Virus record (IMG/VR): IMGVR_UViG_3300027833_000025
Coordinates: 1-64,000 of that record
Length of the DNA stretch: 64,000 bases
Reading direction: 5' to 3' (one strand)
Source: a virus
Within the stretch, counting starts at the first letter, position 1. The number at the start of each line of letters is the position of its first letter. Of the stretch, positions 5-63,252 are shown piece after piece. Under the pieces are notes generated by a model that saw only the letters and a list, made by a program, of their open reading frames with translations, was not told the DNA's origin and did no database searches. The position numbers and the translations under genes are program-made.

Positions 5-3000
5 ATGGATTCTTCGTTAGATATGCAAGCGACAATCGACATGAATGGTGATAAAATCACTAGCGTAGGTACTCCTACAGTAGACACAGATGCAGCGAAC
101 AAGACATATGTAGATACAGCGATAAGTAGCAGTGGTTCAAGTGGTACAGATTTTGTTGCATCAGGCACATTGCCAAATGGCGTACCAGTTATTTTAAATT
201 CTGATGGTACAGTATCACATATTAATACTATAGGATCACTCGAAAGTATACCTAAAGGTACTGAAACTGATGCGGGATTTGGTAATATAACTTATCCATC
301 TGTTGCTTATGATCCGCATACGGCTGCTAGAGTTGTTTTAACTTGGAGAGATAATGGACTATTTGCAGCAGTAGGTACTATATCAGGAACGACAGTAACA
401 TTCGGCACTAAAGTTAGGGCATCAAGCGGCTCTACAGGCTATTATAGTCAAGTACATTTTGACCCAGTGACACCTAACAGTTTCGCGGTAATCTATAGAG
501 GTGGTAGTAATTACGGAACTATGATTGCTGGTACTATATCAGGAACTACAGTAACATTCGGTAGTCAAACTGTGTTCCTTTCGACTACAACTAATGATTT
601 TGATTTTGCGTTTGACCCTAGCACATCAGGATCATTTGTTGTTTCAGCCTCTAGTTCTACTGGTCTTAAAGTTTATGCGGGTACGTTATCTGGTACTACA
701 TTGACGTTTGGAACACCAGTTACAGCTAAAACTGGTGATGATTTTAGAGATATTAGTGTTGCATTTGATAGTAGCATTGCTGGTAATTATGTTTTGTCAT
801 ATGAAAACATGTCTACTTACCCCAATGTTAATTTTGAAATACTGGCGGGCACTGTATCTGGAACAACAGCAACGACAGGCGCAGTAACATTAGTGCAGTC
901 CATTGGAAATGGTGGACTTTTTGATGGAAATCAGATATTCTCTGATTCAAATGTCCCTGGCAAGTTTATAATGGCGTACCGATATGGACCTTCGTATGCT
1001 AGAGTCTGTACGGTGTCTGGAAACACGTTTACGTTTGGCACAGCAGTACAGATAAGCACCGCTACTCCTATAGGGGGTTCGATGTTTAGTTCGTACAACT
1101 CTAGTTTATCTAGTCTTATTTCGACTGCTTATTACAATTCCAACTTTGAGATGACAGTAAGCACAGTGTCAGGTATGACTATAACGCCGGCTACGCCCAT
1201 CATTGTTGCTGCTGGAAATCATGCCAATTTTAGTTTGTCGTTTGATACATATACATCGGGTCGCTTTATAGCGTTTTATAGAAATAGAACTGGCAGTCCA
1301 AATTATGGTGCTACACTTTTCGGTCAATTAGCAACAGTAGCCGCACCAAACTTAACGACAGAAACAGCATCTAATTTCATAGGTATATCTTCTGCGTCAT
1401 ACGCTGATGGAGAAACGGCAACTGTTACATTAGCAGGTTCTGTTTCAGACAACCAAACAGGTTTAACTACTAACTCAACTTACTATGTACAAACAGACGG
1501 CACGTTAACCACTACTGCTGGAACACCTAGCGTAGAAGCAGGACGAGCAATTTCATCTACTTCATTACTATTAACTAGTGATACAGGTCCGACTGGAGCA
1601 ACTGGAGCAACTGGTGGTTTCACCGAAGACTATGTACTAGCCGAAGATATGGCAGCAGGCAGCGTAGCAGTCATAAATTCATTGGGTAAAGTAGAATCTG
1701 TTACTGGTGTTGCTGCTATCACAGCAAGTTATTACGAAAATGCTACCCACACATTATCGACAAACATCTATGCTCAAAGAGGCGACATAGAATCGGATCC
1801 TTTAAATGATAATCGATTTGCTATTGTCCAGGCCAATGACACAGGCTGTAGGATTACAGTTGCAACAGTAAGTGGTACTACCATCACTTGGGGCACGACA
1901 CTACTGCTTAAAGGTGGCTCCTATCAACACATTACTCCTAGAATTTCTTGGGATTCCAATACTGCATCAGGTAGATTAGCTGTATATTATACTGATTATA
2001 CAGGTGGAGTATTTTCTGCATATCTGAGTGTTGTTACTGTATCCGGTACTACATGCACTGAGCAATCTCAGAACATGGTAGGTACTGGCATTGAATTTGG
2101 TGATTTGAAATGGGTTCCAGGAGTAGCAGGGCGACTTGTGTACACACAACGAGATGCTAAAACTCTTGTTATGTACAATGTTTCTGCAACTCATCAGACA
2201 ACATACAATAGCCAAGTTGCTTTTGGCGGATTAGATAGTAATCCCGCTCGTATAATGTTCTTTCCAGATGATGGCACCAAAGTTGTTCTCATGTATGGTA
2301 CTTCAAGTGGCATTGCTGTTCGTATCGCAACTATTTCAAGTTCTGCAATTACGCTTGGTACTGAACAAGTTATCACAGGGGCATCAAGTTCACAGGGTTT
2401 ATATAATCGTCATGGTGCTATAGCTTTTCCATATAACGATTCGTCAAAAGTAGTGTTTGCTTCTGAAGGAATAATGGCTTATAATCAATACAGTGCTGTA
2501 GCGGCAACTATATCTGGTGATACTTTTACTTTTGGAGACATTGTACTGATAGACACTGGTGGTAGCGATTATTCAAGCGAAGGTCTAGTCATGTTTAACC
2601 CGTTTGACTCAACTAATATAATTGTTAGTACAAATATAAGTGCGGCTGCATCCAACTTTCAAGTACTTGAACTAACAGGTACAACACTTGTTAAGCAATT
2701 GGCAACTGTAGTTGCTACTCAGGGATACTCGTTATTAGCTAACCTTAATGACAGTGGAAAGTTTGTGATGTTCAGAATGGATGCTGGCAGCGCCCAAATT
2801 AGTTCTTATGGAGTAACAGGTTCAACCACCCTCACGTCCGGAAAAGTAGCTGGACTCTTAACGACTACGGGAACTGCTGGACAAACAAAGCCAGTTCAAT
2901 TTATCGGAAGACTAGATGGATTTACAGGATTAACCATAGGTGCTGAATATTATGCGCAGCCTGTTGGTGGAATATCTACTGTAAATTCTATAGGATCTGT

Positions 3001-3046
3001 ACTTATTGGCTTTGCAGCTAGCGAAACTGCTATACAAATTAAGTAA
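5..3046 (+). CDS. Virion fibre/structural protein with two tandem beta-repeat units (probably 5' truncated)
   Basis: Thr/Gly/Ser-rich; recurrent GTISGTTVTFG-like repeats; DAANKTYVD fibre motif; short collagen-like linker GPTGATGATG; frame is open to the window start. Confidence 0.7.
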   Translation: MDSSLDMQATIDMNGDKITSVGTPTVDTDAANKTYVDTAISSSGSSGTDFVASGTLPNGVPVILNSDGTVSHINTIGSLESIPKGTETDAGFGNITYPSVAYDPHTAARVVLTWRDNGLFAAVGTISGTTVTFGTKVRASSGSTGYYSQVHFDPVTPNSFAVIYRGGSNYGTMIAGTISGTTVTFGSQTVFLSTTTNDFDFAFDPSTSGSFVVSASSSTGLKVYAGTLSGTTLTFGTPVTAKTGDDFRDISVAFDSSIAGNYVLSYENMSTYPNVNFEILAGTVSGTTATTGAVTLVQSIGNGGLFDGNQIFSDSNVPGKFIMAYRYGPSYARVCTVSGNTFTFGTAVQISTATPIGGSMFSSYNSSLSSLISTAYYNSNFEMTVSTVSGMTITPATPIIVAAGNHANFSLSFDTYTSGRFIAFYRNRTGSPNYGATLFGQLATVAAPNLTTETASNFIGISSASYADGETATVTLAGSVSDNQTGLTTNSTYYVQTDGTLTTTAGTPSVEAGRAISSTSLLLTSDTGPTGATGATGGFTEDYVLAEDMAAGSVAVINSLGKVESVTGVAAITASYYENATHTLSTNIYAQRGDIESDPLNDNRFAIVQANDTGCRITVATVSGTTITWGTTLLLKGGSYQHITPRISWDSNTASGRLAVYYTDYTGGVFSAYLSVVTVSGTTCTEQSQNMVGTGIEFGDLKWVPGVAGRLVYTQRDAKTLVMYNVSATHQTTYNSQVAFGGLDSNPARIMFFPDDGTKVVLMYGTSSGIAVRIATISSSAITLGTEQVITGASSSQGLYNRHGAIAFPYNDSSKVVFASEGIMAYNQYSAVAATISGDTFTFGDIVLIDTGGSDYSSEGLVMFNPFDSTNIIVSTNISAAASNFQVLELTGTTLVKQLATVVATQGYSLLANLNDSGKFVMFRMDAGSAQISSYGVTGSTTLTSGKVAGLLTTTGTAGQTKPVQFIGRLDGFTGLTIGAEYYAQPVGGISTVNSIGSVLIGFAASETAIQIK

Positions 3047-3496: not shown

Positions 3497-4381
3497 ATGA
3501 CTACTCAAACAATCAAATTAACCACTACAAAACGCAAAGCAGGTCGTCCTCGTAAGAACGCAGCAGCATCTATCATTGAAGTAGATACTACTGAGTCGGT
3601 TACTACTGAAACTGATAATGAGATTGTTGAGCGTCTACGTGAACGATTCAGTATCTTAGATGAAATGACTCAAATGTCAGTAGATGGTGATATTCGCGGA
3701 ATGGTAGTAACAGGTCCTCCTGGAGTTGGTAAGTCATTCGGTGTTGAGAATGTTATTGAAAAGAATTCATTGTTTGATAAGTTACGTGGTGCAGTATCGC
3801 GATTTGGCATTGAGAAAGGAGCGGCGTCTGCAATCGGTTTATATAAGTTGTTATATCGTTATGCTGATGCTAACAATGTACTTGTATTAGACGATTGTGA
3901 TTCGGTGTTGTATGATGAATTATCATTAAACCTATTAAAAGCAGCGTTAGATAGTTCTAAGAAGCGTAGGATTTCTTGGAACACTGAAAGTTCAGCACTC
4001 CGTCGTGAAGGAATTCCTGAGTCATTTGAATTTAAAGGATCTGTAATTTTCATTACTAACTTGAAATTTGACAAAGTACGTGGTAAGATCAAAGATCACT
4101 TAGATGCAATTATGTCGCGTTGTCACTATCTTGATCTGACTATGAACAGTACACGTGAGCGTCTATTGCGTTGTCGTCAAGTTGTTAAGGATGGTATGCT
4201 AGAAGATTATGGTTTTTCAGAAGCAGAGCAAACCGAAATCGTTGATTTTGTAGATAATAACAAAGATCGTATGCGCGAGATTAGTCTACGTATGGTATGT
4301 AAAATTGCAGACTTGCGTAAAACCAAAAGTGACAAATGGCAGCGTATGGCAGAAATCACTTGTATGCGATCAACTGCATAA
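3497..4381 (+). CDS. P-loop (AAA-like) ATPase with AT-hook-like N-terminus
   Basis: Walker A GPPGVGKS, Walker B VLVLDD, sensor FITN, SR arginine finger; KRKAGRPRK near the N-terminus. Confidence 0.8.
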   Translation: MTTQTIKLTTTKRKAGRPRKNAAASIIEVDTTESVTTETDNEIVERLRERFSILDEMTQMSVDGDIRGMVVTGPPGVGKSFGVENVIEKNSLFDKLRGAVSRFGIEKGAASAIGLYKLLYRYADANNVLVLDDCDSVLYDELSLNLLKAALDSSKKRRISWNTESSALRREGIPESFEFKGSVIFITNLKFDKVRGKIKDHLDAIMSRCHYLDLTMNSTRERLLRCRQVVKDGMLEDYGFSEAEQTEIVDFVDNNKDRMREISLRMVCKIADLRKTKSDKWQRMAEITCMRSTA

Positions 4382-4401: not shown

Positions 4402-4425
4402 AAGACCCAGGAATCCTGGGTCTTT
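4402..4425 (+). terminator. Terminator-like hairpin
   Basis: AAGACCCAGG-AAT-CCTGGGTCTTT. Confidence 0.65.
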
Positions 4426-4459
4426 GGTTATAATAAGTAAAACAAATTGGAGAACAACA

Positions 4460-5917
4460 ATTAAAACTGCAACAATTATATTGAAAGACGAAGTCAATGC
4501 AAAGATAGAAGGACTTGAACTTACCACTAGAAAAAAACTAGAGGCAAAGTTTAAGTTTTTCTTGCCTTATGCGCGACATGTTCCTTCCTATAAATTAGGT
4601 AGATGGGATGGGTGTGAGCGATATTTTACCATTGGTGGTATTACATTTGTCAGTCTATTAGAGACAGCGATTCCTATTATCATCGAAGATGGTTATCAGA
4701 TTGAACTAGACGATCTTAGAACCCATAATAAACTTGAGTTTGATTTGGTAGATGAATCTACGTTTCAACATAAAGTATGGCCCGCGAAGCATCGTTTTGA
4801 AGGACAACCTGTAACACTACGTGATTATCAAATTGAAATTGTCAACAAGTTTGTAGAAACACCTCAGTGTCTACAAGAGATTGCAACAGGTGCTGGTAAA
4901 ACATTGATTACAGCAGCGTTAAGTTATAAAGCAGAGAAGTATGGTCGTTCTATTGTTATCGTCCCAAATAAAGATTTGGTGAATCAAACATGTGCAGATT
5001 ATATTAATCTTGGACTTGATGTTGGTGTGTACTTTGGTGATAAAAAAGAATTTGGACGAACTCATACAATTTGTACATGGCAGAGTCTTAACGTAATTCG
5101 TAAACGATTCAAGAATGGTGAGCAAGATTGGGGATTGCAAGACTTTGCAGAGGATGTAGTCTGTATCATAGTAGACGAAGTTCACCAAGCAAAGGCGGAT
5201 GTACTAAAAGATATGCTTACTAAGGAATTTGCTAATGTACCTTTACGATGGGGATTGACAGGTACAATACCAAAAGCAGAAAACGAACAAATGACATTGC
5301 AAGTTAGTTTGGGCAATGTAGTAAATCGTTTAGCAGCATCAGAATTACAAGACATGGGTGTACTAAGTAATTGTCATGTTAATATTGTACAAATGAAAGA
5401 AATCACTGACTATACTAATTATCAAAGTGAATTGACATTTTTGACAACGAATGCACATCGTATTAGTTACATGGGTGATTTAATAAAGACAATATCACAA
5501 TCTGGTAATACTCTGGTATTGGTTGATCGCATTAAAGCAGGCGAAATGTTAGTTGATCATATTGGCGGTGATACTACTTTCGTTAAGGGAGCAATGAAGT
5601 CTACAGATCGTAAAGACACATACGATGAAATTAATGAAGCGACTAATAGTATTACTATTGCGACATATGGTGTAGCAGCAGTTGGATTAAACATCCCACG
5701 CATATTTAACATGGTATTGATTGAGCCTGGTAAGAGTTTTGTGCGTGTAATACAATCAATTGGACGTGGTGTTCGTAGAGCAGATGATAAGGACTTTGTA
5801 GAGATATATGATTTCACGAGTACAGCAAAGTTTAGTAAGCGTCATTTGACTGAACGTAAGAAATTTTATAAAGAAGCAAATTATCCTTTTTCAATAGAGA
5901 AAGTAGATTACAAGTAA
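4460..5917 (+). CDS. uvsW: UvsW-like superfamily 2 DNA helicase (probable ATT start)
   Basis: LRDYQ Q-motif, ATGAGKT, DEVH, GLTGT, QSIGRGVR; GGAG 7 nt before ATT 4460. Confidence 0.85.
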   Translation: MKTATIILKDEVNAKIEGLELTTRKKLEAKFKFFLPYARHVPSYKLGRWDGCERYFTIGGITFVSLLETAIPIIIEDGYQIELDDLRTHNKLEFDLVDESTFQHKVWPAKHRFEGQPVTLRDYQIEIVNKFVETPQCLQEIATGAGKTLITAALSYKAEKYGRSIVIVPNKDLVNQTCADYINLGLDVGVYFGDKKEFGRTHTICTWQSLNVIRKRFKNGEQDWGLQDFAEDVVCIIVDEVHQAKADVLKDMLTKEFANVPLRWGLTGTIPKAENEQMTLQVSLGNVVNRLAASELQDMGVLSNCHVNIVQMKEITDYTNYQSELTFLTTNAHRISYMGDLIKTISQSGNTLVLVDRIKAGEMLVDHIGGDTTFVKGAMKSTDRKDTYDEINEATNSITIATYGVAAVGLNIPRIFNMVLIEPGKSFVRVIQSIGRGVRRADDKDFVEIYDFTSTAKFSKRHLTERKKFYKEANYPFSIEKVDYK

Positions 5918-5981: not shown

Positions 5982-6482
5982 ATGAAAATCCTAACGGTTG
6001 AGAATAAGACCTACGAATTGGATGATGTGCCAGAATTAGTAGATGATCTACGATATGGCGTATTAGATTACAGTGACCCAAAGAACGTGGATTATTATTT
6101 TATTCCATTAATCTTTTTAGAAAGTTTTTATAGTCCCGCAGCAGTGTTGCAAGTTGGTGAATATACGATCAATGTACCTTTGGATTGGAGTATTGTTATT
6201 TGCGACCCAGAAGTAGGAAATCCTGAAGTAATTAGTTTGATGGGATTAAATGATAGAGGTTTCACTACAATTGCGATGAACCCAATGACTGGCTATAGCC
6301 CAAAATATCTTGATGTGAATATTGTTAATGTGTTTACAGATGTAAAATGGCATGCCCCAAAACTGAAGTTTGGTCATATTCTGTCAGTACCATTGTGTGA
6401 TGGTGATAATCCAGAATGTATCTATCTTATAAAAGAAGTAAATAAGATACCAGAAGTATTAGACATTAGTGAGTTGATTTAG
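5982..6482 (+). CDS. Hypothetical protein
   Basis: 166-aa ORF with AAGGA RBS, first gene of the operon. Confidence 0.75.
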   Translation: MKILTVENKTYELDDVPELVDDLRYGVLDYSDPKNVDYYFIPLIFLESFYSPAAVLQVGEYTINVPLDWSIVICDPEVGNPEVISLMGLNDRGFTTIAMNPMTGYSPKYLDVNIVNVFTDVKWHAPKLKFGHILSVPLCDGDNPECIYLIKEVNKIPEVLDISELI

Positions 6483-6491
6483 GAATAAATT

Positions 6492-7211
6492 ATGACTCAA
6501 GATCATCATGTAAGAATAGTGAAACACGATATGTGGGACATGACTACTAAATTGTGTTATGGTTATGACTCATGTATGTATATATGCACGACTAAATTAT
6601 CTGATTCTCACATGAGTACTCATCGAAGACTAATGGCACTTAAACCAATTATCAAAAATAATACAACTGATGTAAAAATAGTGATTGGGGATAATTATTA
6701 TTATCGTATGAATGGATGCACACTGCGCGTATACTTTAATATGCTTAACGACGAAGCAGTTAAGTTCTTATTGCATGTCACAGATAAAAATACTAATCTT
6801 TTTGATATAGTGCAAGTAAAGTCCCCAAAAGATGAAGCACATAGAGAGTTGCTTAATAACAAAGAAATAACGCAGATTATAAGAAAGCAGAACTACTATG
6901 ATAAGTATGTATACAGTGTAACTATTCGAATGAATGCTATTACAGTTAAGCAGCCTCAGCATCAATATCAATGGAGTAGGAGTAATCCTGAATCACATAA
7001 ACGTATGCTTGATATGAGAAAATGGTTAAAAGACACAATGCCAAATAGTATGACCACTGCTTATTATGATGATGTAAAAATATATACTAATGATATTAGT
7101 GCTTTGATGATGTTTAGGTTGTCATTTGACGTATCTACGTGTATAATAAAAGAAGCAATCATAGTTAAAGAAGATAAAAAGCAACCCCTAGAATTGAAAA
7201 TAGTGTTTTAA
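6492..7211 (+). CDS. Hypothetical protein
   Basis: 239-aa ORF, AGGA RBS. Confidence 0.7.
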   Translation: MTQDHHVRIVKHDMWDMTTKLCYGYDSCMYICTTKLSDSHMSTHRRLMALKPIIKNNTTDVKIVIGDNYYYRMNGCTLRVYFNMLNDEAVKFLLHVTDKNTNLFDIVQVKSPKDEAHRELLNNKEITQIIRKQNYYDKYVYSVTIRMNAITVKQPQHQYQWSRSNPESHKRMLDMRKWLKDTMPNSMTTAYYDDVKIYTNDISALMMFRLSFDVSTCIIKEAIIVKEDKKQPLELKIVF

Positions 7212-7213
7212 AT

Positions 7214-7672
7214 ATGAGTAAATTAAATATTAAAAATGAGATGCGTGCAATTGATACACGTGATCGCAATTGGTATGATAGTCTAACTGATGAAGAGACT
7301 GTGAAATATAATAAGAATATGTGGACACAGCAACGGTTCATAAGTTCATGTAAAGGTAAATTGGCAGAGCATTATTTAGAGTGGACAAACGAATTAGTAA
7401 ATATTCACTTTAATACTCTTAGACATCATCCCAAGTTACAGTTTCAGTTATTACAAGCGTTGTCATTAGGAACTAGTCAATATCATGAGTGGATTTCTCC
7501 TGGCAAGAAGGGAACAGATACGAAGATATTTAAATTCATTAAAGAAAACTACCCTAATTTAAACGATGATGAAGTAGAATTGTTTATTGGTATGCATGAC
7601 AAGAATGATCTAAGAGAATTGCTATTTGATTTTGGATTAAGTAAAAAAGAAACAACTGCTCTTCTTAAATGA
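7214..7672 (+). CDS. Possible clamp-loader small subunit (gp62-like)
   Basis: Size and pattern (QRFIS...LQFQLL...HEWI.PGKK...IKENY) loosely resemble T4 gp62; replication context. Confidence 0.4.
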   Translation: MSKLNIKNEMRAIDTRDRNWYDSLTDEETVKYNKNMWTQQRFISSCKGKLAEHYLEWTNELVNIHFNTLRHHPKLQFQLLQALSLGTSQYHEWISPGKKGTDTKIFKFIKENYPNLNDDEVELFIGMHDKNDLRELLFDFGLSKKETTALLK

Positions 7673-7692: not shown

Positions 7693-8385
7693 ATGCAACA
7701 AAAATCGTATAAATGTGAATACTGCAATAAAGACTTTAAGCGTGAAAACACGCTTATCGTACATCTATGTGTACAGAAAAAACGACATATGCAAGAGACA
7801 GATAAAGATGTTCAATTAGGATATCGTGCATATCAGTTATTTTATCGTATTGGGACAAATTCAAAGAAAGACAAATCTTATACCGAATTTGCAAAAAGTT
7901 CGTATTATGGTGCGTTCATAAAGTTTGGCAAATATTGCATTGAGGTTAAGATAGATGATGTAATTGGATTCACCACTTGGTTACTAAAGAATCAAGTAAA
8001 ACTAGATCACTGGACACATGATGCGAGATTTAGTGGGTGGGTAAAAGAGCGATTGAAAGTTGAGAGTGTTGATAGAGCAGTCGAGCGAACAATACTAGCA
8101 ATGCAAGATTGGGCAGAAGATAGAGAAAGTGATTGGAATACATATTTCAAAACAGTAGCGCCTAGTCTAGCAGTTTTTCATATATGTTCTGGTAGAATCA
8201 GTCCTTGGGTTATATATGCAAGTAATGATGCACAGGGATTATTGGATATGTTGAATAATAAACAGATTGAAATGATTGTAGATTATATTGATCCTCAATA
8301 TTGGCAGATACGATTAAAGCGTAAAAATGAAGTTAAAGATTTACAATGGGTAGAAACTATTTTGAAACAAGCGAGTATAGGATAA
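7693..8385 (+). CDS. Protein with N-terminal C2H2/C2HC-like zinc finger
   Basis: YKCEYCNKDFKRENTLIVHLC. Confidence 0.7.
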   Translation: MQQKSYKCEYCNKDFKRENTLIVHLCVQKKRHMQETDKDVQLGYRAYQLFYRIGTNSKKDKSYTEFAKSSYYGAFIKFGKYCIEVKIDDVIGFTTWLLKNQVKLDHWTHDARFSGWVKERLKVESVDRAVERTILAMQDWAEDRESDWNTYFKTVAPSLAVFHICSGRISPWVIYASNDAQGLLDMLNNKQIEMIVDYIDPQYWQIRLKRKNEVKDLQWVETILKQASIG

Positions 8386-8391
8386 ATTAGT

Positions 8392-8970
8392 ATGATAGTT
8401 AATACAGATATTGACATAGATATTGCGAATAGAGATAAATTACTTGCTCTAATTGAAAATACGCCTGCAATGATAAAGCGAGAACATACTGAAAAAAAGC
8501 ACAACACAGGTGTATATTTTCATGAGATTCCTACTAATCCATATAATGGTTTAGCGACAATAGATCATAAAGATGCCGAAAAGATGGGTTACTTTAAAAT
8601 GGATTTGTTGAATGTATCAGTATATAATGATATCAATAACAAAGCAGAACTTGATGAATTACTTGAAATGGAACCCATGTGGGATCTATTAGAGCATAGG
8701 GAAATTGTTGAGAAATGTTTCCATATACATTCACATTATGGAATTGTTCAACAAATGAAGCCTAAAAGTGTTGGTCAATTGGCAGCAGTATTGGCAATGA
8801 TACGACCAGCAAAGAGTCACCTAATTGGCAAAGATTGGGATACTGTGATGAACGACATTTGGGTTAAGCCAGAAGATGATTCTTATTACTTTAAGAAAAG
8901 TCACGCTCACTCATACGCAATGGTAGTGGTTATGCAATTAAACAAGATCGTTAAAGACTCTTTTTCATAA
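8392..8970 (+). CDS. Miniature DnaE (Pol III alpha)-like catalytic-core protein
   Basis: Collinear DnaE motifs DIDID, HNTGV, GYFKMDLL, LAMIRP, FKKSHAHSY in 192 aa. Confidence 0.75.
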   Translation: MIVNTDIDIDIANRDKLLALIENTPAMIKREHTEKKHNTGVYFHEIPTNPYNGLATIDHKDAEKMGYFKMDLLNVSVYNDINNKAELDELLEMEPMWDLLEHREIVEKCFHIHSHYGIVQQMKPKSVGQLAAVLAMIRPAKSHLIGKDWDTVMNDIWVKPEDDSYYFKKSHAHSYAMVVVMQLNKIVKDSFS

Positions 8971-10221: not shown

Positions 10222-10250
10222 TTGACAAAATCACATTAATCGTGTAGAAT
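10222..10250 (+). promoter_or_regulatory. Sigma70-type promoter of primase
   Basis: TTGACA-17-TAGAAT, ATG 7 nt downstream. Confidence 0.7.
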
Positions 10251-10257
10251 GTATAAC

Positions 10258-11271
10258 ATGAGATTAATAATAGATTTTACAAGAGCGCATATACCACCTA
10301 ACTGGAAGATAAATCCGTCTGGATGGGTTTCTGGTAATTGCCCTGTATGTGCTACTAGGGGTCATTCTCACGACACAAAAGGTCGTGGTGGTTTCTATTT
10401 CCCAGAGCAAGATACCTTTCAATACAATTGCTTCAACTGTAATTTCACAGCAGGCTGGCCCACGCTAGACAATAAAATAGACGACCGTCTGAAAGCATTA
10501 TATACAGCATTTGGTGCAGATTCAAGTGATATTCAACGATTACAATTAAGATTACTTGAAGATCGCGATATTGAGACTATTCTTTTAAAGAAAGTATCAA
10601 ACGATGATGCGGTAGAGATCAATTGGAAACCAGTAGAATTGCCGCAAGGTGCGAAGCCTATATCCGAGTACACCGAGGTAACTCCTGAACTTGAGAGAGT
10701 ATTGGAATACATGGTGTCAAGAGGATTAGATCCTATGGATTCTCGTTTCTATTATTCACCATCTATGTCACCAGCACGAATGAAGAATAGATTTATTCAT
10801 GTATTCTTTTATAAAGGTGTGATAGTAGGATACACTGCACGATGGGTAGGAACAATTACTAAAGAAATACCAAAATATTTCACTAAGCAACCAAAACTAG
10901 ATTTCGTATATGGATTAGATAAGCAATCTAATAAAAAGATTGTGATCGTAACAGAAGGACAACTGGATGCATACTTCACTGATGGAATAGCAGTTGGTTC
11001 AAATAATATAAATATCGAACAAGGAAATATAATCGATAGTTTGAAGAAAAAAATTATATTATTACCCGATGCTGATTCTGCAAGTAAGTCATTAGTAGAT
11101 ACAGCAATCAATCGCGGATGGTACGTATCATTCCCAGAATGGGATGAATGTAAAGACGCAGCAGATGCGGCACTAAAATATGGTGAATTATTCACCATAC
11201 AGACTATACTAGATAGTGCGATACACAATCCACTAAAAATACAAGTAATGATGAATAAATATTGCAAATAG
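10258..11271 (+). CDS. DNA primase (gp61-like)
   Basis: Zn ribbon CPVC...CFNC; TOPRIM VTEGQLDA, PDAD, KDAAD. Confidence 0.9.
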   Translation: MRLIIDFTRAHIPPNWKINPSGWVSGNCPVCATRGHSHDTKGRGGFYFPEQDTFQYNCFNCNFTAGWPTLDNKIDDRLKALYTAFGADSSDIQRLQLRLLEDRDIETILLKKVSNDDAVEINWKPVELPQGAKPISEYTEVTPELERVLEYMVSRGLDPMDSRFYYSPSMSPARMKNRFIHVFFYKGVIVGYTARWVGTITKEIPKYFTKQPKLDFVYGLDKQSNKKIVIVTEGQLDAYFTDGIAVGSNNINIEQGNIIDSLKKKIILLPDADSASKSLVDTAINRGWYVSFPEWDECKDAADAALKYGELFTIQTILDSAIHNPLKIQVMMNKYCK

Positions 11272-11318: not shown

Positions 11319-12713
11319 ATGAGTGAAACAAAAGAATACACTGTAGAATTGCAGCAACTTTTTATTGAGTTCCTAGCACAAGACAAAGATTTATTTCTAC
11401 GAGTGAATAATATTTTAGAAGCGAGTTACTTCGACAGAACACTTAGAAAGGCAGTTCAATTACTACAAGATCATGTAGCATCTTACGGTGCTTTGCCTAC
11501 ACCAGATCAGATAAAAGCACTAACTAATGTAAAGTTGGCTGGTATTGGTGATACAGTTGATGATAGGCATAAGAGTTGGTTTATCGATGAATTTGAAGCA
11601 TTTTGTAAACATAAAGCATTAGAGGCTGCTATACTTAAAAGTGCTGATCTTGTAGAAAAGGGTGAGTTTGGTGAAGTAGAACGCATTATCAAAGAAGCAG
11701 TGCAAGTGGGTCTTGCAAAGCACATGGGTATTAACTATTGGGATGATCCTAAAGAGCGTATTGAAGCGGCGAGACATTCACGAGCAGGAACAAGCACTGG
11801 CTGGAAGTCAGTTGATTACAAATTGTTTGGTGGATTCAACCCAGGCGAGTTGAATATATTTGCAGCAGCATCAGGTGGTGGTAAAAGTTTATTCTTGCAA
11901 AACCTAGCACTTAATTGGTCGTTAATGGGTAAGAATGTTTTATATGTTTCACTAGAATTAAGTGAATCTTTGTCAGGTCTGCGACTTGACGGCATGCTAA
12001 CTGGTATGAATACGAAATCAATATTCAATGATGTAGAAGGTACTGCGTTAAAAGTAGGAATGCAGGGTAAGTCTGCGGGCAAACTACAGATAATTCAAGT
12101 TCCTAACGGTATCACTGCAAATGATTTGACAAGTTATATGCGAGAATTTGAAGTTCAGAATGGTGTGCGCATTGATGCTATGTTAGTTGACTACTTAGAT
12201 TTAATGACTCCTGCTGGACGGAAGATCAATGCGAGTGACTTGTTCATTAAAGACAAATATGTATCTGAAGAATTACGTAACTTTGCAGTAGAAAATGACG
12301 TATTGTTTGCAACTGCGTCACAGTTAAATAGATCAGCAGTTGAAGAAGTAGAATTTGATCATAGTCATATTTCTGGTGGTCTGAGTAAGATTCAAACAGC
12401 AGACAACGTAATTGGTATATTCACAAGTCAAGCGATGCGAGAGCGCGGTAGGTATCAAATTCAATTTATGAAGACACGTAGTTCATCTGGTGTAGGACAA
12501 AAAGTTGATTTAGCGTTTGATATTGAAGGATTGCGTATAACTGACTTGCCTGATGATGAACAAGATACCATAACTAATCAATCTAGTACAATATATGATA
12601 AATTGAAGAAGAAAAACACAATAGTTGATAGTCCGAATGAACCTGCTCCCGAAGCAACTAGTACAGAAGATCAAGCAGCACGTCTACGTAGTATTTTAAG
12701 AAAACAAGATTAA
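11319..12713 (+). CDS. Replicative DnaB-like helicase (gp41-like)
   Basis: ASGGGKS Walker A, SLEL, VDYLDL, ASQLNR, KTR. Confidence 0.92.
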   Translation: MSETKEYTVELQQLFIEFLAQDKDLFLRVNNILEASYFDRTLRKAVQLLQDHVASYGALPTPDQIKALTNVKLAGIGDTVDDRHKSWFIDEFEAFCKHKALEAAILKSADLVEKGEFGEVERIIKEAVQVGLAKHMGINYWDDPKERIEAARHSRAGTSTGWKSVDYKLFGGFNPGELNIFAAASGGGKSLFLQNLALNWSLMGKNVLYVSLELSESLSGLRLDGMLTGMNTKSIFNDVEGTALKVGMQGKSAGKLQIIQVPNGITANDLTSYMREFEVQNGVRIDAMLVDYLDLMTPAGRKINASDLFIKDKYVSEELRNFAVENDVLFATASQLNRSAVEEVEFDHSHISGGLSKIQTADNVIGIFTSQAMRERGRYQIQFMKTRSSSGVGQKVDLAFDIEGLRITDLPDDEQDTITNQSSTIYDKLKKKNTIVDSPNEPAPEATSTEDQAARLRSILRKQD

Positions 12714-12747: not shown

Positions 12748-12996
12748 GTGAAGAAACGAACCAAATCATTATTGCAAGAAATTAACAATATTGCACCAAA
12801 CAGAGATAACGCACAATTAATAGAAACGCGCGGAGTAAATGTATTGAGTAGTATGATCAATCTTCTTGAAATGATAGAACAGACGTATGATGCTGAGATA
12901 GCGCAAGATTTGCAAAAGCGCATGATCTTGGATCTTAAAAATAGAGAACCTGTTCGTTTTGCACGAGGTGTAAAAAAACTACGAGACAATAAATGA
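12748..12996 (+). CDS. Hypothetical late protein
   Basis: GTG start with GGAG RBS. Confidence 0.7.
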   Translation: MKKRTKSLLQEINNIAPNRDNAQLIETRGVNVLSSMINLLEMIEQTYDAEIAQDLQKRMILDLKNREPVRFARGVKKLRDNK

Positions 12997-14225
12997 AAAT
13001 TTCAGAAATTATTAATATTACAGGAAGAAAGAAGCGCGAAGACAGAGATGCACGAAAACGCAGATTGAAACATGGCGCTGATTTATACGATGTTGATGTA
13101 TCCAAGTTAGGTGAATCAACACTATCAGAAAGTCGCATACAGCATATAGAAGACTTAATATTCTTCCAAGGTAGTAGCGGTGCTATGAGAGCAGTTGCAG
13201 CCCTTCGCAGTATGTCAGGAGATGATCATAAAGCAGTAACGCTTAAATGGGATGGAAGTCCTGCAATGGTATTTGGTCGTGATCAAAACGGTGAGTTTAT
13301 ATTCACAGACAAGTCAGGTTTTGTAGCAGTGAAAACAGATGGTAAAGCAAAGAGTGCTGAACAACTACAAGATATTATGCTTAATCGTAGTGGTGGAATA
13401 AACCGAGAAGACCCAGAGCGTGTAGCATTCGCCAAACAGTTATCAAGTCTGTTTCCTATATATGAAAAAACAGTACCAACAGACTTTAGAGGATTTTTTA
13501 AAGGTGATCTATTATATCAATCAACACCACCCGTTGTTGGAAATAACTATGTTTTCAAGCCACAGATTGTTGATTATGCAGTAGATGTAGAAAGCGACTT
13601 AGGCAAACGCATTGGCGCAAGTAAATCTGGTATTGTAATACATAGAGAAGAAGATGCTAATGGAAAAGAAGGTCCTTTCACGCATATGGAAATGTTTAAC
13701 AACCAAAAAGATGTATTGGTAGTACCAAGTGTGACAACCGAAAAACCTGTTGAAGTTGATACAAGCGCAATTGATCAACTTGAGCAAATAATTAAAAAGA
13801 ATGCGGCGGGCGTAGATGAGTTATTAAATGATAACACACTAACTACGCAGAAAATGAAGGCATTGCCAGAATTATTATACGCATATATGAATAGTAAAGT
13901 AGACACTGGTCTAACTAATTTAGGTGCAGATTTTCCAACTTGGTTAGAGAATAGAAAGCAAGTGTCAGATAAAATGAAAGTCAAAGTATTAGAATATATT
14001 GGTCAACATAAAGTTGCATTCGTTGCATTATGGAATGTAGTAGCAGCAGTTATGGCTACGAAAGACGATATCATTGCTAAATTCGACAGTCAAGGTGGTC
14101 AAGTGAAGCAAAGCATTAATGGTCAACCTGGAGGCGAGGGGTATGTACTTGCTAGTCCTAAAGGTGATATGAAGTTAGTACCAAGAGCAACGTTTAGTGC
14201 AGCAAATAGAGGGGCGGTAAGATAA
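12993..14225 (+). CDS. ATP-dependent ligase-superfamily (RNA-ligase-like) protein with CTS-like leader
   Basis: KWDG (motif I), FKGDLL (III), EGYV (IV), MKLV (V); N-terminus MKISEII. Confidence 0.65.
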   Translation: MKISEIINITGRKKREDRDARKRRLKHGADLYDVDVSKLGESTLSESRIQHIEDLIFFQGSSGAMRAVAALRSMSGDDHKAVTLKWDGSPAMVFGRDQNGEFIFTDKSGFVAVKTDGKAKSAEQLQDIMLNRSGGINREDPERVAFAKQLSSLFPIYEKTVPTDFRGFFKGDLLYQSTPPVVGNNYVFKPQIVDYAVDVESDLGKRIGASKSGIVIHREEDANGKEGPFTHMEMFNNQKDVLVVPSVTTEKPVEVDTSAIDQLEQIIKKNAAGVDELLNDNTLTTQKMKALPELLYAYMNSKVDTGLTNLGADFPTWLENRKQVSDKMKVKVLEYIGQHKVAFVALWNVVAAVMATKDDIIAKFDSQGGQVKQSINGQPGGEGYVLASPKGDMKLVPRATFSAANRGAVR

Positions 14226-60609: not shown

Positions 60610-63252
60610 ATGAGTTATGTCGATGGATTAATTGATCGTGACAGAGACATCATTCATGTGGTTGAACGTGTGAATGGTGTCCGTCGTTACTTAGAATATC
60701 CTGCACATCATACATTGTACTATCCGTCACCGAAGGGAAAATATACTTCTATCTTTGGTGACACGTTAGAGCGAGTAGTGTGTAATTCTGGTCGCAAGTT
60801 TGCCGCAGAGAAAAAGTTACACCATCGCAAAGGTTTATTTGAGAGCGACACAAACCCAGTGTTTCGTTGTCTCGCAGATAATTATCTTGATGCTGAACCA
60901 CCAACACTCAATGTGGCATTATTCGATATTGAAACAGACTTTAATAGAGAGATAGGTTATGCACCACCAGATGATCCGTTTAACGCGATCACTGCTATAT
61001 CAGTGCATATGAGTTGGATGAAGCAAACAGTGTGTTTGGTAATCAAGCCTAGTTCAATGACTGAGGAAGATGCACAAGCGATTGTTGATAGGTTTGACAA
61101 TGCTATCTTGTGTGATAGCGAAGAAGCAATGTTGACTTCATTCTTAGAGTTGATAGACGATGCCGATATATTGACAGGTTGGAATAGTGAAGGATTTGAT
61201 ATACCATACACAGTAAATCGTGTATCGCGTGTATTGAGCAAGAGTCACACACGACAGTTCTGTCTCTGGGATAAATTTCCGAAGCAAAAAGAAGTTGTTA
61301 AATTCGGCAAAGAAACACAAACTTATGACTTGATTGGTCGTATACATCTTGATTATCTTGAATTGTATCGTAAATACACATATCATGAAATGCACTCATA
61401 CTCACTTGATGCTATCTGTGAATATGAACTAGGTGATCAAAAAGTTGAATACGAAGGAACACTTGATCAGTTATACAATAATGACTTTTTTAAGTTCATT
61501 CAGTATAGTATACAAGATGTTGACTTGATGGTTCGGTTAGATGAAAAACTTCAATTTATTGATTTGGCAAATCTTATTGCACACTCAAACACCGTACTAT
61601 TACCAACTACCATGGGATCAGTGGCACAGATTGATCAGGCAATAATCAATGAAGCACATTCACAAGGTTTAATTGTGCCTGACAAGAAGCGTGGTGAAAA
61701 ACCTATTGCAGCAGCAGGCGCGTATGTAGCAACACCGATCAAAGGTGTTCATAGAGACATCGCATCAATTGACTTGAATTCATTATACCCATCTATCTTA
61801 CGTGCATGTAATATGTCTACTGAGACAGTTATCGGTCAGATAAAGCACGTGCACACTAGAAAGATGCTTGAAGATCATGACTTTAACGTACCGAAGGCGT
61901 GGGAAGGTAGATTCGCTTGTATAGAATATGAAATGGTCATGGAAAAGAATACCACATCATTACTTACACTTGAATTTGTAGACGGAACTGCTCATACCTT
62001 ATCTGGTGCTGAGATATACGAACTTGTATTTGAAAGCGATCAGCCTTGGATACTTACTGCTAATGGTACATTGTTCACACACGAAAAGAAAGGAATTGTA
62101 CCTAAATTACTTGAAACTTGGTATGCTGAACGTAAAATATTACAAACAAAAGCACGAGATGCGCGTGATGAAGGTGGTGATAAGTTTGCATATTGGGATA
62201 AGCGACAGTTAGTTAAAAAGATTTTGCTTAACTCATTGTATGGTGCTTTATTGAATCCTGGAAGTCGTTTCTTTGACGAGCGATTAGGACAGTCTACTAC
62301 CTTAACAGGTCGTTGTATTGCACGACATATGGCAGCATCATTAAATGAAGTCATTACTGGTGAGTATGATCACAAAGGTAAATCCATTGTATATGGTGAT
62401 ACTGACTCTACTTATTTTAGTGCATATCCTATTTTAAAAGATCAGATTGCAGCAGGTTCAATTAATTGGGATAATGACACAATGATTTCATATTATGATG
62501 CAGTGTGTGGAGAAGTAGATACTACGTTTGCAAAATTCATGATGGACACCTTTCATACCACCCATGAGTTAGGAGTAATTATTGCAGCAGCACGTGAAGT
62601 GGTGGCTACTTCGGGTCTGTTTGTAATAAAGAAGCGTTATGCACTTATGGTGATTGATAACGAAGGCAAGCGCGAAGATGTAGAAGGTAAGCCTGGCAAG
62701 ATCAAAGCAATGGGACTTGACTTGAAGCGAAGTGATACACCTAAGTTCATGCAGGAGTTCTTGAAAGAGATTCTTGGAATGGTACTAACTGGTATTGAAG
62801 AATCCATAGTAATAGATCGTATTGTGAAATTTCGCAGCGAGTTTAGAGCAATGGATAGTTGGCAGAAGGGTACACCTAAACGTGTAAACAACTTGACTAA
62901 TCATACAAAGAAATATAATAAGATTGGCAAGTGTGGCGTTGGTCATGCAATGGCAGCAATCAATTGGAATCGTTTGAAGAAGATAAACGATGATGCATAT
63001 AGCATGGATATCACTGATGGTATGAAAACTATTGTATGTAAGTTGAAGAAAAACCCAATGGGTATGACTAGTATTGGTTATCCGACTGACGCGAAGCGTA
63101 TACCTGATTGGTTTAAAGAACTACCATTTGACGACGGCTTAATGGAAGAAACTATCATCACAAAGAAGATTGAAAATCTAATCGGTGTTTTGAAATGGGA
63201 TTTACAATCAGCAGCAGCGAATAATACATTCTCTGATTTATTTGAGTTTTGA
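60610..63252 (+). CDS. Family B DNA polymerase (gp43-like)
   Basis: Exo DIET, WNSEGFD, YSIQD; pol DLNSLYPS, KILLNSLYG, YGDTDS, KKRY. Confidence 0.96.
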   Translation: MSYVDGLIDRDRDIIHVVERVNGVRRYLEYPAHHTLYYPSPKGKYTSIFGDTLERVVCNSGRKFAAEKKLHHRKGLFESDTNPVFRCLADNYLDAEPPTLNVALFDIETDFNREIGYAPPDDPFNAITAISVHMSWMKQTVCLVIKPSSMTEEDAQAIVDRFDNAILCDSEEAMLTSFLELIDDADILTGWNSEGFDIPYTVNRVSRVLSKSHTRQFCLWDKFPKQKEVVKFGKETQTYDLIGRIHLDYLELYRKYTYHEMHSYSLDAICEYELGDQKVEYEGTLDQLYNNDFFKFIQYSIQDVDLMVRLDEKLQFIDLANLIAHSNTVLLPTTMGSVAQIDQAIINEAHSQGLIVPDKKRGEKPIAAAGAYVATPIKGVHRDIASIDLNSLYPSILRACNMSTETVIGQIKHVHTRKMLEDHDFNVPKAWEGRFACIEYEMVMEKNTTSLLTLEFVDGTAHTLSGAEIYELVFESDQPWILTANGTLFTHEKKGIVPKLLETWYAERKILQTKARDARDEGGDKFAYWDKRQLVKKILLNSLYGALLNPGSRFFDERLGQSTTLTGRCIARHMAASLNEVITGEYDHKGKSIVYGDTDSTYFSAYPILKDQIAAGSINWDNDTMISYYDAVCGEVDTTFAKFMMDTFHTTHELGVIIAAAREVVATSGLFVIKKRYALMVIDNEGKREDVEGKPGKIKAMGLDLKRSDTPKFMQEFLKEILGMVLTGIEESIVIDRIVKFRSEFRAMDSWQKGTPKRVNNLTNHTKKYNKIGKCGVGHAMAAINWNRLKKINDDAYSMDITDGMKTIVCKLKKNPMGMTSIGYPTDAKRIPDWFKELPFDDGLMEETIITKKIENLIGVLKWDLQSAAANNTFSDLFEF

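Follow-up and report, generated by a model that had tools for sequence, protein, structure and literature searches.

The gene at positions 8392-8970 of the window, by which is meant the whole 64-kb stretch of DNA analysed here (it opens a 97.8-kb viral record of IMG/VR with an estimated completeness of 27%), most probably encodes the C-terminal unit of a two-piece minimal DNA polymerase III (Pol III) alpha of the jumbo phages of group 2.2 (RaK2/PA5oct-like). Iyer, Anantharaman, Krishnan, Burroughs and Aravind described this split minimal enzyme from genome comparisons (Viruses 2021, section 3.4.1; PMC7824862), with the C-terminal unit as the Mg2+- and template-binding piece. The protein studied here, hereafter the C-half, is a further member of this family already described by comparative genomics. 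Because the family is in the literature and some GenBank records already annotate it as DNA polymerase III alpha or DnaE-like, this window adds just one further member. A full-text literature search found no paper on the split mini-Pol III besides that of Iyer et al., and neither the PA5oct omics paper nor a 2026 jumbo-phage review mentions the C-half gene. The same literature yielded no enzymatic, genetic or expression data for any member of the family.

The C-half gene and its replication neighbourhood

The ORF at 8392-8970 on the plus strand is open and intact, running from ATG to TAA over 192 codons. An initial annotation, made from the letters of the window, had picked out six DnaE-like strings in its product, and all of them are present in the order given: TDIDID (residues 5-10), KHNTGVY (36-42), GYFKMDLL (66-73), FHIHS (110-114), MKPKSVGQLAAVLAMIRP (122-139) and YYFKKSHAHSYA (165-176). 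The gene is the last of a closely packed run of plus-strand ORFs separated by gaps of 3-21 nt. The features of the region are as follows:

4424-5917, helicase homologous to annotated UvsW, preceding the run
5982-6482, plus strand, conserved small protein (PHROG 11279), opening the run downstream of the UvsW-like helicase
6492-7211, plus strand, second ORF of the run
7214-7672, plus strand, conserved small protein (PHROG 11758), in the same run
7693-8385, plus strand, C2H2 zinc-finger protein (PHROG 11058), 7 nt upstream of the C-half gene
8392-8970, plus strand, C-half gene, putative C-terminal (metal-/template-binding) half of a split minimal Pol III alpha, 192 aa
8951-9322, minus strand, convergent gene of 123 aa (PHROG 11637, function unknown), overlapping the last 20 nt of the C-half gene
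10249-11271, DnaG-type primase, downstream of the C-half gene
11319-12713, DnaB-like helicase, downstream, after the primase
60610-63252, plus strand, family-B DNA polymerase (PolB), 880-aa ORF (PF00136, E 7.2e-33, above the cut-off)

The genes after the C-half also include one resembling a virion protein, together with the primase and the DnaB-like helicase. The initial annotation had placed the C-half at the end of an operon near primase and helicase genes, which agrees with this arrangement, but its gp62-like label for 7214-7672 found no support. The product of that ORF has no Pfam match and shows a weak HMG-box/TFAM likeness (E about 0.07). Since Iyer et al. noted an HMG-related domain in helicase loaders of the gp59 type from these phages (PMC7824862), this product may be such a loader and not a subunit of the clamp loader. 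As for the zinc-finger protein at 7693-8385, its Pfam zf-C2H2 scores lie under the curated cut-off, and zinc fingers in the PDB were matched at E 4e-5. A PolB in the same phage had likewise been claimed and was found at 60610-63252; it is presumably the main replicase of the phage.

Several other ORFs of the region were recorded. The ORF with which the window opens (5-3046, plus strand; 1013 aa) has no Pfam match. Directly upstream of the UvsW-like helicase lies a 294-aa AAA+ protein (3497-4381, plus strand; PHROG 1250, function unknown) with weak matches to DnaC-like loaders and AAA proteins. Just downstream of the DnaB-like helicase, a 410-aa product (12993-14225, plus strand) has DUF6267 as its sole match (E 1.8e-36) and contains a KWDG string similar to the KxDG that forms motif I in capping enzymes and ATP-dependent ligases.

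The C-half gene is widespread. It occurs in 96 records of isolated jumbo phages, including RaK2, PA5oct, Atu_ph07, Phosso, XacN1 and SCTP-2, the family comprises more than 7,900 database proteins of near length, and 409 clusters at 50% identity match the C-half; the relatives listed are mostly about 185-215 aa long. The C-half of this window is 38-50% identical to the proteins of isolates, and a near-identity DNA search against isolated phages gave no match. One relative (P0005), encoded on a 318-kb contig, is 93% identical. Synteny in relatives, one of the checks proposed at the outset, showed that the replication block around the gene is conserved. The order UvsW, 5982, 7214, C2H2, C-half, antisense ORF, virion protein, primase and DnaB is found whole in PAC2 and the marine relative G003; RaK2 is short of only a detectable virion-protein match, and Phosso keeps part of the block. 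Among the six relatives' loci examined, the C2H2 gene stands upstream of the C-half in five (Phosso, PAC2, RaK2, G003 and G010) and the convergent PHROG 11637 gene has the same arrangement in all six, including RaK2, PAC2, Phosso and marine relatives. A homologue of 7214 (PHROG 11758) was detected in the loci of PAC2, RaK2 and G003. The products of 5982, 7214 and 7693 are conserved companions of the C-half, not a missing half of the polymerase.

Likeness to C-family polymerases

Searches of Pfam and NCBIfam with the C-half alone returned nothing significant, and a single-sequence search of the PDB gave only a chance match to an antibody. The HMM search against Pfam DNA_pol3_alpha (PF07733) that had been proposed as a check had a divided outcome: the C-half fails the gathering score of this model, which the partner half (35.5 bits) and a fused form described below (59.6 bits) both pass, whereas phage and family profiles do connect it with Pol III alpha. 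The closest of these, PHROG 11778 ('DNA polymerase', 197 positions), aligns its positions 6-195 with residues 4-190 (E 7.5e-65), and the DnaE-sized family PHROG 405 matches residues 53-141 (E 1e-7). A profile was also built from an alignment of 90 relatives that are 31-93% identical to the query. Searched against the whole PDB, it found Pol III alpha chains only (nine distinct sequences, E 1e-5 to 1e-4). In the HMMER alignments with the same profile, residues 55-140 correspond to 539-641 of E. coli and residues 152-180 to 740-769, with K69 and D71 on the KFD of 2hnh.

Structure prediction, also proposed at the outset, pointed to the same family. The AlphaFold2 model of the C-half computed with the alignment of 90 relatives is very confident (mean pLDDT 95.9, pTM 0.87), and the best 13 Foldseek matches are all Pol III alpha. 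By VIA-align, 190 of the 192 residues fall on residues 458-838 of Thermus aquaticus Pol III alpha (3E0D; Z 10.0, rmsd 3.8), 186 on E. coli 397-781 (Z 8.6) and 189 on residues 968-1296 of the Geobacillus PolC (3F2C; Z 9.8). Z ranges from 6.4 to 10.0 across 13 DnaE/PolC entries, and the next, unrelated fold reaches 3.5. Taken from profile and model comparisons, the C-half is a genuine fragment of a C-family polymerase whose likeness to DnaE is not due to chance, and its predicted fold is the second half of the DnaE palm together with the fingers core.

The motif equivalences to DnaE drawn by the initial annotation are correct when the protein is aligned to E. coli numbering. They are listed below (all on the plus strand):

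8407-8421, D6-I-D8-I-D10, DxDxD strand; E. coli D401, D403, D405
8500-8511, H37-N-T-G40, strand motif; E. coli H511-A-G-G514
8596-8604, K69-M-D71, strand with the third catalytic Asp; E. coli K553-F-D555
8803-8808, R138-P139, fingers; E. coli R639-P640
8890-8919, F167-K-K-S-H171...Y175-A176, finger helix; E. coli F756-N-K-S-H760...Y-A

D401, D403 and D555 are metal-binding residues conserved throughout the C family (PMC3919608). Retention of all three catalytic aspartates, as claimed initially, holds for the whole alignment, in which D6, D8 and D71, as well as K69 and P139, are found in 90 of the 90 relatives, down to 31% identity. D10 is present in 88 (one Asn and one Glu elsewhere), H37 and R138 in 89 each, and G40 in 88; in the finger helix, the counts are 83 for K168, 89 for H171 and 79 for Y175. 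The dN/dS of the C-half against close relatives is about 0.06 (dS 0.50 and 0.85), which denotes strong purifying selection. Loss of the aspartates, relaxed selection and a fold other than that of DnaE, which the initial annotation had named as grounds against its proposal, are all contradicted.

In the structural alignment to E. coli 397-781, the thumb and part of the fingers have no counterpart in the model. Between D10 and H37 there are 26 residues, compared with 105 in E. coli, which indicates that the thumb has been excised (about 80 aa); between P139 and F167 there are 27, compared with 115, so a large part of the fingers (about 88 aa) has been excised as well. These boundaries of the thumb and finger-insert deletions are reported here for the first time. 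The C-half is without PHP, thumb, clamp-binding and OB domains, and the earlier description of a stripped C-family piece that has lost these domains is borne out by the size of 192 aa and by the alignment gaps.

Compared with known polymerases, the C-half shares with bacterial DnaE (E. coli 2HNH, Taq 3E0D) the palm strands and the H511..G514, R639-P640 and F756NKSH760 motifs over 186-190 residues (Z 8.6-10.0). It differs in spanning only about E. coli 397-781, minus the thumb and about 88 finger residues, and in being one of two genes; with PHP, the GRGS half of the palm, clamp-binding, HhH and OB all absent, it has about one sixth of the length of DnaE. In fold, it resembles the Firmicutes PolC (Geobacillus kaustophilus 3F2C) just as closely (Z 9.8 over 189 residues, 968-1296). 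However, profile searches with the C-half match DnaE chains and not PolC, and D10 is an Asp, as is the D405 conserved in DnaE, whereas PolC has Asn at that position (PMC3919608).

Beyond the C family, Foldseek returned minimal nucleotidyltransferases (Cid1, JHP933) at E 0.28 or worse with probability below 0.1. These enzymes rely on the same basic catalytic elements, namely a G-S loop, a DxD strand and another strand bearing the third carboxylate, and the assembled two-piece protein would be about as large as they are. The halves could in principle form an active Pol-beta-fold nucleotidyltransferase that is not a template-directed DNA polymerase, adding nucleotides to DNA or RNA ends without a template, or nucleotidylating or synthesizing small molecules, for example in conflict with host defence. 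Such a role would suit the absence of the thumb, clamp-binding and OB domains and of about 88 finger residues, the place of Cid1 and JHP933 (weak as these matches are) directly after the C family, and the fact that the phage already has PolB. It is nevertheless unlikely, because the DnaE-specific finger motifs RP and FxKSHxxYA are strongly constrained, the whole C-half aligns to the fingers of DnaE/PolC as well as to the palm, and the gene resides in a replication/recombination module and not in a defence island. Moreover, the helical module of the C-half corresponds to DnaE fingers and is not of the PAP/OAS type found in Cid1 and JHP933.

A separate partner in relatives for the missing half of the palm

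The C-half begins at the position of E. coli residue 397, with four residues ahead of its DxD strand. It therefore lacks the initial half of the palm and, with it, the G-S loop that binds the triphosphate (GRGS 361-364 in E. coli). An active site of the Pol-beta fold also requires such a loop, which in DnaE lies upstream of the DxD strand. A complete palm with the GRGS segment in one polypeptide is not what the C-half contains.

In relatives, the GRGS segment is carried by a separate protein (hereafter the N-half). In Phosso, PAC2, RaK2 and G003, positions 19-102 of PF07733 match an ORF of about 170 aa that is distinct from the C-half gene, and both halves are also present in G009 (a complete IMG/VR genome of 322 kb) and G010. 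The two genes lie far apart: more than 200 kb in Phosso, 44 kb in PAC2 and 34 kb in RaK2, while in G003 the N-half is 117 kb downstream of the C-half on the same strand. The C-terminal end of the N-half family reads nearly invariantly GVGRGSSV.S..L...G.H.....KY.LDIKEF, in which the GVGRGSS loop is invariant. Profile positions 95-167 of the N-half fall on E. coli 320-392 without a gap, and residues 76-161 of its predicted structure (pLDDT 81.6) align with E. coli 279-386 (Z 7.3-8.1) and with M. tuberculosis DnaE1 307-406 (Z 8.5). Since the N-half ends at about E. coli 393 and the C-half starts at about 397, one fold appears to be cleanly split between two genes. Residues 1-75 of the G003 N-half (L089:1522-2025, minus strand) form a sequence-variable alpha/beta region with no solved-structure match in a single search. 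In bacterial DnaE, the PHP domain precedes the part of the palm that the N-half covers.

Both halves were detected together in 92 of the 96 isolate records, as separate genes, an observation that is new here. The two halves were also found fused in one metagenomic protein of 375 aa (P0176), in which PF07733 spans the junction (residues 97-207, E 4.8e-16). This single case, also new, is suggestive of a natural fusion of the mini-Pol III halves, and suggestive only, because P0176 is an ENA singleton on a 2.4-kb contig and may be a chimeric assembly; it was not found in IMG/VR. A tblastn search of 50,697 phage records with P0176 gave matches at 188 places, distributed over 96 records; no place covers at least 80% of the query, indicating that isolated phages carry both halves but never fused or adjacent. 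Searches for longer relatives with C-half and N-half queries found no fused or full-length form, which by the type of search is weak evidence.

In the phage studied here, no N-half was found in the 97.8-kb record (27% complete) with PF07733, with two N-half proteins or by tblastn with three N-halves, and a six-frame scan of the record found no GRGS motif. The genes that follow the N-half in relatives, including a GroES-like gene, are absent from the record as well. A weak tblastn match to an N-half at 67505-67831 (E 0.84) was rejected as an unrelated ORF without GRGS. The neighbours 5982, 6492, 7214 and 7693 were rejected as candidates for the missing half since none matches PF07733. If the partner were spaced here as in G003 (+117 kb), it would fall past the end of the recovered fragment, and with no N-half in the record, the two-piece architecture of this phage is inferred from relatives; the C-half of the closest of these is 65% identical to the present one.

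The comparison with the group 2.2 phages shows no essential difference. The C-half shares with the C-unit of their split Pol III alpha its length, its motifs and a full-length match to PHROG 11778; the genome type is that of this group (PolB, DnaG-type primase, DnaB, UvsW), and the gene order matches that in RaK2, PA5oct-like phages and Phosso. What sets the present case apart is that it comes from a fragment of an uncultured phage on which the partner gene is not located.

The initial annotation had offered two suggestions. According to the first, the C-half would be a minimal, self-sufficient DnaE of 192 aa, acting alone or with 5982/7214/7693 as a primer extender between primase and PolB. 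The invariance of the three catalytic aspartates and K69, the compact single domain of the very confident model, and the position in a close run of genes with conserved neighbours, adjoining primase and helicase, all accord with this proposal. It is very improbable all the same, given that the required G-S loop is missing from a polypeptide that starts immediately before the DxD strand, that this loop is invariant on a separate protein co-detected in nearly all isolate records with the C-half, and that no neighbour matches PF07733. The second suggestion, the catalytic subunit of a split enzyme, proved the right idea in view of the GRGS-bearing partner of the relatives, although the completing subunit was sought in the wrong place: none of 5982, 7214 and 7693 matches DNA_pol3_alpha, and GRGS is found in no frame of the 97.8-kb record. 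Least credible is a catalytically dead remnant that has a structural or regulatory part in the replisome. The extreme loss of domains and the lack of any demonstrated activity could be cited in its favour, but dead enzymes usually lose their catalytic residues, whereas here the invariant residues are the catalytic ones (D6, D8, K69 and D71 in 90 sequences), the GVGRGSS loop of the partner is invariant too and the C-half evolves at a dN/dS of 0.06.

Proposed mechanism and implications

In the two-piece polymerase favoured here, the N- and C-halves would come together in trans as a nucleotidyltransferase of the Pol-beta fold, about 360 aa in size. The GRGS of the N-half would hold the triphosphate, D6, D8 and D71 of the C-half would hold the two metals, and the finger helices remaining in the C-half would position the template. 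The assembled enzyme would then most likely extend a 3' end on a template, with direction by the template being an assumption in view of the missing thumb and DNA-binding surfaces. With thumb, clamp-binding and OB domains all missing, the enzyme would be expected to act distributively and to make short stretches, and a short-patch role therefore fits better than bulk synthesis, which is presumably the task of PolB. Its place would be beside PolB, for example in primer extension, gap filling or recombination-dependent replication, and the C-half gene is located within the conserved UvsW/primase/DnaB module; the more specific proposal of a primer extender between primase and PolB is a guess. In the phage of this window, the partner gene would lie outside the recovered 27% of the genome. 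Together, the two small proteins may make up an autonomous DNA polymerase of some 360 residues that is directed by a template and dedicated to short-patch synthesis or primer extension beside PolB; this is put forward tentatively, as a real possibility that falls somewhat short of being probable.

If this is true, the two-protein enzyme of about 360 residues would be by far the smallest C-family polymerase, and it might be taken as a model for the ancestral core of Pol III, an idea proposed for the split mini-Pol III by Iyer et al. (PMC7824862). If a pair of proteins, each about 170-190 aa long, does work as a polymerase, it would establish what the catalytic core of the bacterial replicase family minimally requires and would provide a tractable system for examining what the thumb, PHP and clamp-binding domains contribute. 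Moreover, such a split mini-Pol III, if it works, would explain the presence of a second polymerase beside PolB across a large clade of jumbo phages.
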